Positions 37,601 to 46,600 of a stretch of 64,000 nt of DNA are shown here, in pieces. The notes beneath the pieces are model-generated. The model was not told the DNA's origin. It made no database searches and worked only from the letters and a program-made list of their open reading frames with translations. A program made the position numbers and the translations under genes. This DNA is from Paraspadella gotoi (lineage: Eukaryota > Animalia > Chaetognatha), in assembly GCA_051294375.1 (NCBI GenBank), contig CM119269.1:6833552-6897551 (forward strand), in the 5' to 3' direction. The stretch's first letter is position 1, and each line of letters starts with the position of its first letter.

Positions 37601-40600
37601 GAAAAAACTAAAAAATATATTTCACTATTTGAACACGAATTACTCATGAGTGTAAGGGGCGATTGACTTTAAATTAGTATTTGGGTAGAAAAGTGTGTGA
37701 TTAAACTGGAAATCAAGTTTCGATAGAATCGTTTGTGTGGAAATGAGTTTAAATGGAAAAAACAAAAAACCTGTTTCACTATTGATTATGCTTCTTTTTC
37801 TTTAAATGTAAATGCAAGATGTTTTAATTAATCAAATAATTAATCAGTTAATTAATTAATTAATCAGTCAATTAAGCAATCGAAACAAACATTTTCGATC
37901 AAATTAATAAAATAATTACCTAATTAATTAAATAATTAACTTAAATAAATTACTTATTAATTAACTTGAATCACTTATCAATTATTATTTATTAATTAAT
38001 TAATTAATTACCGATAATGGTCGTGGGCAGATCCGACTTTGTGACAGCAACAATGTAAAAGACTGGAAAACGATAAGCATTTTATTAAATATCAAAAATT
38101 ATATTAACACAATACAAAAACAGTAACGGTATTAACAACAGCTTAAAAAGCCTGGAAAAGGTTTCAAATTTTCCTTAAACGATATTGCCTGAAATATGTA
38201 GTTTCCCTCTTACCCGATAAAATTAGCGGATTAAATCAATACACTTGTCGCAGCATTATAACGATTCCTCTAAAATTATTCTTGTGGTTATTATCGTTGA
38301 ATAATTTATAATTGAAATTAATTTTCCTCTTCAATTTGCTTTAGGATCTAAAATTTAGTTACTCCTTAATTAAAATATTTTTCGATACTGCGAAATGCAA
38401 ATGAGATTAAAAAGTTGAGAAGCGACTGAGCCAAATGACTTTTAATTATTTAATTTATCACTCCTCATGCGATCGTTTCGATTCCCTACTCAAGTGGCGG
38501 AATACCTGACCGAGCTCGAAGGTCATCGAACTCAGTCTGACTTTGACGACTCCATGAACTTGAAGATTTACCTCTTGCAATTCGTCACCTTCTATGCGTC
38601 CATCTTTTATGTCGCCTTCTTTAAAGGGAGTTTTTCCGGGGCGCCGCATCGTTACCAGAGGATCCCCGTGTTTTTTACAGGTATTGGATGGACAAGCACA
38701 GTAATAAATATTTTTTTAAAAAATCATCACTAAATCAATTTATCAAACTCACTAATGTAAAGATCAAATGGCACATGCCACAGCTGCAGCATAACCTCTC
38801 CGCCCATTGAACAGGAAACCATAGAGGCAACCGGCTGGAGGAGTGCGAATCGGGGGCGTGCCTTTACGATCTCTGCATTCAGCTTTTCATCATCATGTTC
38901 GGCAAAGAACTCGTCTACGATACTCTCACCGAAATTTACATCCCCAAGATCATGAAGTGGTACTACGAGACAAAGTGAGTCCAAATTTTTTTGTGTATAT
39001 CTTTTGAAATTGGTACGACTAAAATAAAGATTTACTTAATAAATAAACTAGTACAACCTTTCAAACAAGACTTTAAGCTCACTTAATTGACTGTCAGTGA
39101 AAAGGAAACGCTCCATACAGCATTATATCATTAATATATTGATTAATTTTTTCAGATTTTTAGCCATTTTTAATAAAAAATTGGCAAATAGCCGAGAAAT
39201 TAGTTTAAAATATGTTTTAATGCCAAAAATCCAAAGTTGAATAATATCAGATAGATAGGCAATTTACCCAAACAATTTAGTTCCGTTGGACAGCATTTTA
39301 GTTCCTTATTCATTTTGACGTTGAACGCGATTTCAACTTCCGCCACCGGATTCTTAGATTGAGATCAATTATCGTTCAATTTGTTAGATGACTCGATCCT
39401 CGCTGCCCGGGTATTTCCAACCCTCGAATCGACCCAAAGATATACTATTGAAAATTTAATATCCTCATCCTAAGAAAAAAATTTCTTGCGAAACTTATAT
39501 GTAACTGCCGGAAGCTGATATCTATAAATAGAAGCTTAACTCGTCTCACTATTACTATTGTGCAGTCTTTACCGGATTTAAATTTAAAAATACAATATAA
39601 ATAAAATTAGCATTCAGAACTCTTTTAATTTTTTTTTTCACCGACTATTTTTTAACATTCGACCGCAACAACAACAACGACAACAAATTATATCGAGATG
39701 AATCTTCCCGCGCTTTTCATCTTCATCTTCGTCGTATTCGTCGACGCCGCCGCCGCCAGAAATTCCGGCGTCAAACTCGTCTCGAACGGCTACACCGGCG
39801 TCGTCGTCGCGATCCGCGCCGACGTCGCCGAGGACGATTCCATCGTCGATGGCGTGAAACGGATTCTCACTTCCGGTTCCAAGCAGCTGTTCGCCTCGAC
39901 CAAGCAGAGAGCTTACTTCGCCGAGGTGACCATATTGATCCCGCCCAACTGGACTCACAAGGCGGGATACTTACCCAAGGAAAAGGAAACTTACTCGAAT
40001 GCGGACTTTGTCGTGGCGCCGGTGAACAAAAAATACGGCGACAGTCCTTACGCGAAGAGTTTCGGCGGATGTGGCGATCAGGGTAAGTTAATGGGCGGCG
40101 ATCCGGTTAGATGTCGGATTCGCGAAGCATATGCAGTTTATGCACTCGGCAGTAGGCAAAGTAGCGCTTCCGAGCTTGGGACTCTTTGCATCAATTATTA
40201 GTTGACTAATGATTATTTATCCGTTTATTGAAAATTTGTTCTTGAATTGTATACAGAAGGCTTAATATTATAAAATGTGGGTACTATGGCAACGGAGAGG
40301 ATAGCCTGTGTGACTACCGGGCGCGCGGGTATCTCACCAACTGGCGTAGGGGCTGCGGACCCTCAGTGACCGCCTCCTGACACTGGCATGTTTATACCGG
40401 CACCGTCACATTTTAAGCCAGAACCGGATACCCAGGGATTGAACCCGGGACGCAGGATGGAATTGAGATGATTAGCCTGCTCAGCCATTGAGACGAGGCT
40501 GAGGACGGACCGCAGTGAGGCAGCTTTAAGTCTTGCTGCCACAGTACCCCTTTTTTGTGACCAGAACACGTTCCGAGAAAACACTGGACCAAATTTATTG

Positions 40601-43600: not shown

Positions 43601-46600
43601 TCAAGATCGGCCACCGCCGGCGCCGCGGAGTTAAGAGCGGCTCAATCTCTCGCCCACGAAGTCAACTCCAAGCTCCAAAGAGGCGTTGATGAGATTCCGC
43701 CCGAGAGGATCGTCGACCTTCGCGTGAAGTCAACGTCTCGCGCCACCGGAAACGTCACCCTCGAATTCACGTCGACCGGCGACGATTTTGACGAGGGAAT
43801 TGTCAAGATGTACAGAGTCCGCATCTCCTCCAACGTTTCGTCCGAATTGTCGACGAAGGAGTTGGAGGTAGAGCCGACATATTCGGCTGGAGAGATGGAG
43901 TCGTTGACCTTCCACACGCAGGCTCCCGAGGTCGGCGTGGCCGCCTTCAGGGTCGTCGTTGTCGGCGTCGACGACGCGGGTAACGTCGGCGCGGAATCCA
44001 ACGCCGTCACCTTCGGTCTCGGATCGGTGGCTGACATCGTCGACGGGAAGATTCGTCTGGAGAAAGAGGAAGACGACAATGGCGGCGAAGACGAAAATAG
44101 CAACGAAATCGTCGTTACTGTCGTCGTCATTGTCGTCGTCGTCGTCGGTTCGGTCATCGTTTCCATTGGGGTTATGGCTTTCAAAGGATTTTTCGTTGCT
44201 TGTCAAGGACTTTCGAAATTGTTCTCGTAAGAGTCGAAATTTAACAGAAAACAATCGATTTTTAATTTTAAAAAGCCAAAAAAATACGGATGAATTACTA
44301 TATTTTGTCATTTTCGTCGTAACATGTGTCACGTGTGCACTTGAGTTGAATATAAATTTTGACGGAATTTTCTTTTTTAACAAATAAAAAAGAAAAGAAA
44401 AATAAGTAGTTAGTAAAAGTTAGTTAAAGTCAGTTAGATTGAACTTTACCAGTACTAATACCAGTAGGAGAAGAAAATATATTCATTGACTGCATGTTGT
44501 CAGCAGAGCAAAGATTAATAATGTATCAACTTCAAAGAAAGAGAACACAATTGTTTTTTACCTTTTCCTATTCCGCTTCCAAGACGTCGATTCGCCAATT
44601 GGAAGCATCATCGCCGCACGACGCGTCGCCTCGCGCGCCTTTCGCTTCCGGCTTCGACTCCGCCGCCCCTGCCGCCCAAACGGCGCGTCGGTGCGGCGCT
44701 GACGTCCCCGGATCCCTTGACCCAGTTGGTGCCCGATTCGATTCAACTTTCGCGCGTCAGCGCCGCGGGAAGACGCGGCGACGCCGGAGACGATGTCATG
44801 AAAACGAAAAGAGAGGCGCCGTTGGAGGAGGAGGAGGAAGAGCATGAGGAGGTGGAGGCGAGCCGAAGGGGAGTTTGTCTGATGGTCAAGTCACCGACGG
44901 CAAACACAGGTGCCAGATTTATAATAAGTATTAAACGAAACAATAAGAATTAAGGTAAAAATAAAACCGACGATCCATGGGATGTGAGGTATAGTATTGT
45001 ATTGTATTGTATACGTGAGAAGGATTATCATGCTGATATAACTACCAATTATGGTAATAATAGGCAGACATATCCCTAAAAGTAACATTAGTTACTATCA
45101 AGTTGTACTTAAGAGTTGTATTTTTAAAAAATATATATATGTTGAATACTTAAATTAATCATTAAATACTCCGTAGTTCAAACATTGCTCGCCGACGCGT
45201 CAGAGGATAACCTTTCCAACTCTGGCCTCGGCGGTGGCAACGCTATCTCTCCCTCCCGAAGCACAAATGACTTCTTCTCCGTGGAAATCGACAAGTCCGC
45301 CGAAGACGCCGCCAGCGACGGCATGAGCGACGACGCCGAGGAAAACAACGCCGTTTTACCGCGCCGCTTTTCCGTCGAACGCCATCCCAACTCGAGAACG
45401 AAGATTCGACCGACGCCGCTGCCCCATTGCGGCGTCGGAGGTAGCGGTTGCGCCATGGGCGTCGTCGGTTGCGGCAAAGACGCCGTCGGTTGCGGCAACG
45501 GGTGCCGAAAAGTTGGCATCGCGGCAAAGACGACGAAAACCGAAAACGAAGACGAATGGCGAAGCAGAGAAACTCGTGGAAGGAAATTAAAGAGGATTTT
45601 GACATTTGGTAAGGCTCTCTCCTCTCTCTCTCTCTGTTTGGGGGCGAATCCTCCGTTTCTTCACGACATGTCATCTCCCTTACACGGTTCTCTCTTTCCA
45701 TATTTCTCTCTCTCTCTCTCTCTCTCTCTCTCTCTCTCTCTCTCTCTCTCTCTCTCTCTCTCTCTCTCTCTCTCTCTCTCTCTCTCTCTCTCTCTCTCTC
45801 TCTCTCTCTCTGTCTCATTCTTTCCATTTCCATCTATGCTCTTTCTTTTTTAATTTCACAATTTTGAGCTCTCTTGTCATGGTTGCTTTCGTCGCGTTGC
45901 ATGGTCGTGTTGCGATCCTTATTTCTCGCAAATGTCATTCAATTTGAATATTTTAAATTGCTATTCTCGATTTCGAATTGACTTTTCAGTCAAATCCCTT
46001 CATTTTTATTTTTTTTTTAAATTTAATTGAGCAAAATGAAATTTCTTTTTTTTAAGGCTACACCCTTTATCAAGTTTATGCTTTCTAAATCCCAAAAAGG
46101 TATCAACGATGACGAGGAGGACGAGGATCCATCGTGGGTGAAATTCTTCGCTCGAAGAAGATCGTGTTCCGTGACGAAGTATTCGCCCTCGACAAAATCT
46201 CGTCAGTCGACGCAACTACTAGCGCCGCCTAAAGTGAGAAAACTGTAAAAATATTTTAAATAAAAGACGTTTTTGTATATAATGTTTCGTTAATTTATGT
46301 ATAAGTAGTTAAGGGTTACTAAATATTTATAAAAAAGAAAGAAAATATTCCTCAGCTTTGAAGTACGAATTATCAATTAATCTTTTTCGTTTGAGGGTCC
46401 GTTCTTTTCTCTCTCCGACTACAACTATTTGTCATTTTGGGGTAAATCAATCCACTAATTTTAATCTAATGTGTATCAATACACGTTTTTATTAAGTGTG
46501 TTATAAACTATGCCAATTATTACTAACTGAGCTTTAACACTTTAAAATTAAATGGCCATCACAACTAAATTTAGTAAAAACTCACAAATTAGAAAAATCG

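Follow-up and report, generated by a model that had tools for sequence, protein, structure and literature searches.

A gene of the CLCA family (39698 to 44230) was found to lie, on the same strand, within a very probable intron (38975 to 44583) of an anoctamin (TMEM16) gene in the chaetognath Paraspadella gotoi. The window analyzed is a stretch of 64,000 nucleotides (assembly GCA_051294375.1, contig CM119269.1, positions 6,833,552 to 6,897,551 of the forward strand), to which all coordinates refer. The nesting was predicted earlier from the DNA letters, and it was borne out here by exon chains and DNA contigs. The arrangement is real and apparently undescribed: the original prediction knew of no such case, and no description of a CLCA nested in or linked to a TMEM16 gene was found in the full-text literature, most subscription papers being beyond reach. 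With a probability of about 0.6, a membrane-anchored pseudo-protease CLCA, itself under selection, landed incidentally in a small intron of a host gene of the TMEM16A/B type.

Structure of the host and nested genes

The anoctamin host was modeled in 27 exons on the plus strand (4702 to 49030; approximately 1,820 amino acids) from tblastn matches, exon chains, and a tree, where the start codon and the join between 13629 and 15090 are uncertain. With two anoctamins (P0010 and P0011) as tblastn queries, the exons formed a single ordered plus-strand set from about 4.7 to 48 kb, and the Anoctamin domain was recovered with its transmembrane helices TM1 to TM10 in order by Pfam, tblastn, and the exon chain. 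The match to residues 578-621 of P0010 ended at 38960, and the match to its residues 630-664 picked up at 46792. Between 30724 and 49030, 17 exons could be chained in an open frame whose sole stop was the terminal one, and every host intron within 38495-47988 had GT-AG ends. The joins used in this chain were 38974 (phase 2) to 44584, 44909 to 45177, 45608 to 46100, and 46233 to 46810.

Upstream of the nested gene, the plus-strand TM5 exon (38495 to 38680) encodes a glutamine where mouse ANO6 has Q559, and the TM6 exon (38815 to 38974, plus strand) ends in a phase-2 donor before GTGAGT and matches residues 621-663 of mouse ANO1. As the exon at 47164 matches ANO1 residues 710-749, the two halves of the host are complementary and not duplicates from two genes. 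The plus-strand intron that holds the CLCA is 5,609 nt long with GT-AG ends, and its intron status is indirectly backed by an RNA-like contig described below. It is followed on the plus strand by three exons (44584-44909, 45177-45608, and 46100-46233) that encode a lineage-specific expansion of approximately 290 amino acids in the cytoplasmic TM6-TM7 loop, and by the TM7-TM10 exons (46810 to 47988), which encode the counterparts of the Ca2+ ligands E702, E705, E734, and D738 as well as a TM9-TM10 loop rich in acidic residues. Exon chains and tblastn confirmed the coordinates originally given for the exon end at 38974, the restart at 44584, and the CLCA gene. The open 17-exon chain also agreed with the earlier reading that the frame resumes at 44584 and runs on to TM7-TM10, and the segment 38975-44583 was indeed free of N gaps, as N runs occurred only at 16875, 18420, 29044, and 37341.

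The nested gene comprises three plus-strand exons that encode 963 amino acids. Pfam matches to CLCA (E = 5e-31 and 4e-28) and VWA (E = 4e-13) were found in the order of the family, with CLCA_N (PF08434) preceding VWA, and the best match in PDB was the VWA domain of human CLCA1 (6pyo). Exon 1 (39698 to 40082) encodes the start of CLCA_N and a hydrophobic N-terminus, which is likely the signal peptide that the original prediction had named. Exon 2 (41631 to 41854) encodes the zinc motif. Exon 3 (41948 to 44230; 2,283 nt) encodes a Cys-rich region, the VWA domain, beta-rich and FnIII-like regions, an acidic linker, a predicted C-terminal transmembrane helix (residues ~923-947), and the stop. The VWA domain's MIDAS (metal ion-dependent adhesion site) is complete (D329, S331, S333, T401, and D428), and C125, C193, C213, C225, C254, and C276 of the Cys-rich region are kept in 96-100% of the relatives having a residue there. 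Intron 2 (41855 to 41947; 93 nt) is in frame, likely has GC-AG ends, and corresponds to a gap of 31 amino acids relative to the homologue P0137. Intron 1 (40083 to 41630; 1,548 nt) is packed with dispersed repeats. Its segment 40320-41510 is built from high-copy repeats nested in one another, whose inverted ends lie near 40300 and 41490, and further copies occur at 58756-59373 and 62495-62744.

A TATA box and a polyadenylation signal had also been attributed to the nested gene. The hexamers exist on the plus strand, as a candidate TATAAA (39523 to 39528) and a candidate AATAAA (44383 to 44388) that lies 195 nt before the host acceptor, but they do not exceed chance: TATAAA has 46 copies in the 64 kb and AATAAA 92 (1.4 per kb), six of the latter within the host intron. 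Both were therefore rejected as evidence on their own. Additionally, Rfam returned no matches across 38000-50000, and a sigma-70 promoter scan, whose consensus is inapplicable to an animal, remained at chance level.

Physical order of the locus

Contigs of four of the nine listed sequencing runs (X1, X5, X6, and X9) were compared with 38400-45620. X1 is possibly the assembly's own sample, and X5 and X6 are other samples. The DNA contigs 38400-39473 (X1), 39155-39620 (X5), and 39475-40279 (X1) linked the TM5 and TM6 exons to CLCA exon 1, an X6 contig (38758-39025) spanned the host donor, and an X1 contig (44118-45620) joined the final 37 codons of the CLCA to the following two host exons. The order of the CLCA between host exons is thus backed by short-read contigs independently of the assembly. 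Only CLCA intron 1 (~40280-41479) had no bridge among the contigs listed, and as that stretch is internal to the CLCA and homologues have the two halves joined, the order is not undermined there.

These contigs speak against a misjoin that would have put an unrelated CLCA locus into the anoctamin gene. Such an error could be suspected from the unbridged, repeat-filled intron 1 and from the poor assembly just upstream, where a tandem duplicate rich in indels runs up to an N gap; with both CLCA ends joined to host exons and the unbridged part confined to the CLCA itself, it is highly improbable. The upstream duplicate spans 9.6 kb of anoctamin exons from the TM1 loop to TM6 (19490-29043 versus 29069-38888) at approximately 92% identity. 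Its first copy has 224 extra-base events compared with 99 in the second, includes a broken TM5 exon, and ends at the N gap, and it was consequently read as raw or uncorrected long-read sequence. The duplicate is likely an assembly artefact and was rejected as a second anoctamin gene. A frameshift near 30360-30370 was also observed in the TM2 exon (30295-30390) of the better copy, the other copy being broken there too. The original prediction mentioned neither the duplicate nor this frameshift, both of which lie outside 38975-44583.

Probable splicing of the host intron

X9 was only guessed to be RNA; its depth is low (3.6), and regions without X9 coverage carry no evidential weight. One X9 contig skips 44910-45176, a segment that three DNA runs cross, which indicates that X9 holds spliced RNA and gives the splice from 44909 to 45177. 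CLCA contigs were present in X9 as well (39653-39945, 41995-42448, and 42882-43644), the first beginning downstream of the candidate TATA box, so both genes are transcribed in one RNA-like run. The original prediction had named the host junction as RNA evidence; the joints listed from the contig comparison, 15 of a larger set, do not include 38974-44584.

The junction is suggested indirectly by the X9 contig 44446-44613, which crosses the host acceptor unspliced and stops exactly 30 nt past 44584. Neighboring contigs overlap by the same 30 nt at branch points in these data (41900-41929 and 42009-42038), and the contig end therefore points to a second path into 44584 whose preceding base is not G. 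Among the upstream modeled exons, only the TM6 exon, whose last base is A, combines phase 2 with a non-G end; an alternative cause of the end at 44613 would be a drop in coverage at the depth of X9. When scored with a matrix built from the other 24 sites of the host gene, the donor at 38974 (8.6) and the acceptor at 44584 (9.0; rank 3 of 408 AGs) were like the gene's other sites. The segment is very probably spliced as a host intron, with the junction itself deduced from these features. An alternative in-frame acceptor at 45262 would skip the CLCA as well.

The same region was weighed for a split anoctamin, where a TM1-TM6 half would stop after the TM6 exon, a TM7-TM10 half would have its own start, and the CLCA would lie between two genes. 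Read-through stops one codon past 38974 with AATAAA at 39023-39042, the RNA-like contig 44446-44613 is unspliced over the acceptor, and the junction is missing from the joints listed, all of which would fit two separate genes. However, the contig end implies a path from a non-G, phase-2 exon that only 38974 fits, both splice sites resemble those of the rest of the gene, and AATAAA is common at its frequency of 1.4 per kb, making two genes very unlikely. Unspliced read-through past the TM6 exon meets three AATAAA within 70 nt (38975-39050) besides the early stop, and an mRNA encoding TM1-TM6 only appears possible from the sequence.

Acceptors within the CLCA were also compared with that of the host. 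The acceptor at 41948 scored 11.3, compared with 9.0 for the host acceptor, and from the host donor it gives a stop after 12 codons. The splice sites of CLCA exon 2 are weak (2.7 and 2.8), which would limit inclusion of this exon in host mRNA. A phase-2 acceptor at 41911 in CLCA intron 2 scored 8.9 against the 9.0 of the host and fuses TM1-TM6 in frame to 773 amino acids of the CLCA; a working fusion protein of this kind was rejected because its VWA domain would sit on the cytoplasmic side.

A selected regulatory link without protein contact could build on such features, either through shared secretory-epithelium enhancers or through CLCA transcription that truncates the channel mRNA after TM6. 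The strong 41948 acceptor, the stop after 12 codons, and the polyadenylation signal behind it would suit this link, and premature polyadenylation of a host driven by a nested gene is known at mammalian loci (bioRxiv 2023.05.02.539096). Yet a truncated host isoform was not seen in the contig data, and the features would arise with any same-strand insertion without need of selection, so that a selected link is quite unlikely.

A substituted protease motif in the nested CLCA

The motif HExxHxxxGxxDE of active, self-cleaving CLCAs was not found in the nested CLCA, which reads H157-Q158-x-x-H161...D168-E169 (Q codon at 41717-41719). The general base is lost, while the zinc ligands H157, H161, and D168 are all kept, as are the G, D, and E of the motif. 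The gene had been described as intact, which holds for its open reading frame but not for its protease site, and neither the HQxxH motif nor the C-terminal membrane anchor had been mentioned. The Q158 codon was identical in the X1, X5, and X6 contigs, whose listed substitutions are all elsewhere. By analogy with two human mutants, Q158 would abolish self-cleavage: CLCA4 E156Q is uncleaved and gives no current, the VWA MIDAS also being required (PMC11231702), and CLCA2 E165Q is inactive, yet a wild-type copy can cleave it in trans (PMC10669480).

Among the best 150 CLCA relatives, HExxH was present in 110, the region was absent from 19, and the motif was substituted in 21, only one of which (P0137) has HQxxH. 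The same complete MIDAS was found in 127 of these 150. The segment at the autocleavage loop is poorly conserved and comprises 49 amino acids, compared with 54-76 in seven full-length relatives. In a phylogeny of 28 rows, P0003, P0137, and P0138 (46-52% identical) formed a clade of four with the nested CLCA, with a Shimodaira-Hasegawa-like approximate likelihood ratio (SH-aLRT) support of 100. P0137 is the only other clade member that covers the zinc motif, which P0003 and P0138 do not reach, and since HQxxH is common to two proteins of 46% identity, the catalytic loss is likely old and tolerated. The three relatives come from Logan, ENA, and JGI assemblies, and P0137 reads unbroken through both intron positions of the nested CLCA, as either a transcript or an intronless gene. 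A metagenome scan with the nested CLCA gave no relatives among 262 pattern matches. When the clade of four was scanned for as an alignment, 180 matches yielded 10 loci, and these are not relatives of the clade because they are only 26-38% identical over part of the VWA domain.

Substituted CLCA sites are described by Lenart et al. (2013; PMC3650047), who report approximately five origins, a lineage-wise expansion of CLCAs, and, in the portion available, none in Drosophila. The nested CLCA shares with those proteins the loss of HExxH, for which E-to-Q is a common replacement; unlike in them, only its general base is gone and the three zinc ligands are retained. It is also alike to human CLCA2 (PMC10669480) in signal peptide, CLCA_N, VWA, C-terminal transmembrane helix, and length (943 amino acids for CLCA2 versus 963). 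Human CLCA2, however, is an active protease, and the nested CLCA is a natural equivalent of its inactive E165Q mutant.

At least 15 variants among those listed were read from the contig comparison, 14 of which are coding. The CLCA coding variants among them included eight silent and six replacement changes, compared with 689 and 2,200 sites, respectively (p = 0.008), where one of the replacements recurs in each of the three DNA runs and could reflect an error of the assembly. This excess of silent variants is as expected of a CLCA kept under selection. The X9 contig 42882-43644 is 748 nt long against 763 nt of the assembly, with 15 gap positions, and likely represents an allele with an in-frame deletion of five codons.

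Family and Ca2+ site of the host anoctamin

The host core grouped with protostome 'anoctamin-1-like' sequences at 100/100 in a tree of 21 rows, and likewise in a FastTree phylogeny of 49 rows. It formed a long branch beside lophotrochozoan sequences (87/84), a placement that points to a likely spiralian. The tree references were the top 120 matches of an A/B query plus one, 101 of these 121 being omitted from the careful tree, and the rows included no vertebrate sequences and none named G, H, K, L, or M. A fly member of the host's clade scored 697 on ANO1 and 629 on ANO6, compared with 770 and 795, respectively, for a member of the other sampled clade. Single host exons were divided between ANO1 and ANO6 as the better match. 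The host thus appears to group with the TMEM16A/B (Subdued) type, as a long branch and among references drawn by an A/B query.

The Ca2+ ligands of TMEM16 proteins are N650, E654, E702, E705, E734, and D738 (PMC8480199). Five of the six are as in mouse ANO1 in the host (E654, E734, and D738 placed by ungapped offsets, E702 and E705 by a backward count from the exon boundary), and N650 is replaced by D. In 17 of the 18 references matched by the pattern, as in the host, the TM5 position equivalent to ANO6 Q559 is a glutamine; the host can therefore be read as a channel or a scramblase. Subdued, a member of the TMEM16A/B subfamily, scrambles lipids as well (bioRxiv 2022.04.22.489151). The host thus resembles Drosophila Subdued and the invertebrate TMEM16A/B proteins in its apparent branch (100/100 versus the other sampled clade), the glutamine at the TM5 selectivity position, and five of the six ANO1 Ca2+ ligands, and differs from them in its long branch, its length of ~1,820 amino acids, its low-complexity insertions (including ~290 amino acids between TM6 and TM7), and the N650 to D change.

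The length of the host compares with a usual ~950 amino acids, and long low-complexity insertions were observed at 13305-15463, 32668-35310, 44584-46233, and 48363-49030. Its TM6-TM7 loop of 344 amino acids compares with a median of 55 among the 45 of 121 references matched by the pattern, one of which has 356, and with 72-88 in the 93 of 121 references matched by a second loop pattern. The expansion adjoins the Ca2+ site.

Origin and possible function of the nested gene

Under the reading of an incidental nesting, an intron-poor CLCA copy would have landed in a small host intron, probably by duplication or retroposition. The CLCA unit occupies 4.9 kb and leaves an intron of approximately 710 nt, near the host median of 534 nt, and its exon of 2,283 nt exceeds the largest host exon (432 nt), both of which fit the insertion of an intron-poor copy. 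The encoded protein would reach the surface and stay whole and anchored, with its zinc and MIDAS binding retained, and may bind mucus or matrix through the VWA MIDAS and the inactive zinc cleft, probably with no involvement of the channel. It could thereby serve in adhesion or mucus binding, trapping substrates as a dead enzyme.

Interaction between the two units would take place mostly at the level of RNA, where a host polymerase would pass the CLCA promoter, the strong 41948 acceptor, and the polyadenylation signal. Splicing from the host donor to 41948 would stop the channel 12 codons beyond TM6, and CLCA expression would thus be more apt to shorten or weaken the host than to aid it. Known same-strand nested pairs likewise have an intron-poor gene that sits wholly within one long intron of a host with many exons, and they share the potential for premature polyadenylation of the host. 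Among mammalian genes, 12-17% contain a nested gene, strand preference being slight and expression of the pairs anti-correlated or uncorrelated in older surveys (bioRxiv 2023.05.02.539096). In contrast to these known pairs, no pair of a channel and a member of a regulator family was found in the literature search.

The chance of a CLCA within an anoctamin intron was estimated at 2e-4 to 8e-3 per genome, or 0.2-7 per 1,000 lineages, from guessed ranges of intron space, gene numbers, and nesting rate. One case in a wide scan, where many family pairs would look meaningful, is thus weak evidence of function. Human CLCA1 and ANO1 are unlinked, and in both human regulatory pairs (CLCA1-TMEM16A and CLCA4-TMEM16B) the two genes lie on different chromosomes. 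The original prediction had taken the nesting to suggest shared regulation and an old CLCA-TMEM16 partnership; the E-to-Q change, a mammalian mechanism that is paracrine and works without linkage, and the chance estimate all speak against this suggestion.

Several points weigh against an incidental nesting. The host would fall in the subfamily regulated by CLCA1 and CLCA4, and the MIDAS that such a partner requires is complete. Given that CLCA2 E165Q is cleaved in trans (PMC10669480), release of an N-terminal fragment would be compatible with Q158. The chance estimate is built on assumed inputs, and the nesting is known here from one genome alone. Additionally, the hallmarks of a retrogene (absence of introns, a target-site duplication, and a poly(A) remnant) were not found: the two CLCA introns are kept, and the search for a target-site duplication gave none, the longest flanking direct repeats being 9-10 nt and AT-rich, so that retroposition is no more than a candidate route.

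A channel with its regulator was considered on the model of the human pairs CLCA1-TMEM16A and CLCA4-TMEM16B (PMC4360653, PMC11231702), which involve the same two families, a host of the A/B branch, and a VWA domain with a complete MIDAS. A co-expressed CLCA would hold the host at the surface through its MIDAS on the TM9-TM10 loop, either tethered and uncleaved or cleaved in trans by an active paralogue. The TMEM16A/B branch of the host, its acidic TM9-TM10 loop, the complete D-S-S-T-D MIDAS, the contigs of both genes in one RNA-like run, the two mammalian pairs, and the trans cleavage known for CLCA2 (PMC10669480) are consistent with such a pair. However, with the same MIDAS in 127 of the 150 relatives, this site is no sign of a TMEM16 partnership. 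Human CLCA1 and CLCA4 have HExxH, cleave themselves, and release paracrine fragments, whereas the nested CLCA has HQxxH and a transmembrane tail and is encoded inside the channel gene (PMC4360653, PMC11231702). The E-to-Q mutants in PMC11231702 did not potentiate currents, uncleaved full-length CLCA1 keeps its VWA closed (bioRxiv 2025.10.18.683246), and Drosophila has Subdued and, by the available text, no CLCA (PMC3650047, bioRxiv 2022.04.22.489151). The mammalian effect is also paracrine, CLCA1 being a secreted factor that acts on TMEM16A with no gene linkage needed, as described in PMC4360653. A channel-regulator pair at this locus is accordingly rated unlikely. A stricter form, in which the CLCA lacks self-cleavage, keeps its anchor in the membrane of the channel, and grips the TM9-TM10 loop by its MIDAS as an in-gene auxiliary subunit, would be decidedly unlikely.

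Neighboring genes

Two genes were observed on the minus strand downstream of the host. A multi-exon receptor tyrosine kinase gene (~50300-60400), with a weak Pfam kinase match, is convergent with the anoctamin, and its product is presumably ROS/sevenless-like. The 3' part of a gene for a multi-pass membrane protein, which resembles a chitin synthase in its translation, lies at ~61000-64000.

Implications for CLCA function

It is still debated whether CLCAs serve chiefly to regulate TMEM16 or as proteases of mucus (bioRxiv 2025.10.18.683246), and the locus offers a natural test: a CLCA under selection that lacks the catalytic glutamate, retains a complete MIDAS and a membrane anchor, and lies in a gene apparently of the TMEM16A/B type. 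By analogy with the human mutants, the nested CLCA likely acts without proteolysis, whatever its role. If it is an in-gene auxiliary subunit, the CLCA-TMEM16 partnership would go back at least to the protostome-deuterostome split, and the locus would represent a tethered version, acting in cis, of what is otherwise known only as a paracrine mechanism. More generally, binding of the CLCA to its host would make the partnership ancient and able to work in cis. If it does not bind the host, the locus marks an old clade of pseudo-protease CLCAs and cautions against reading function from one gene arrangement.

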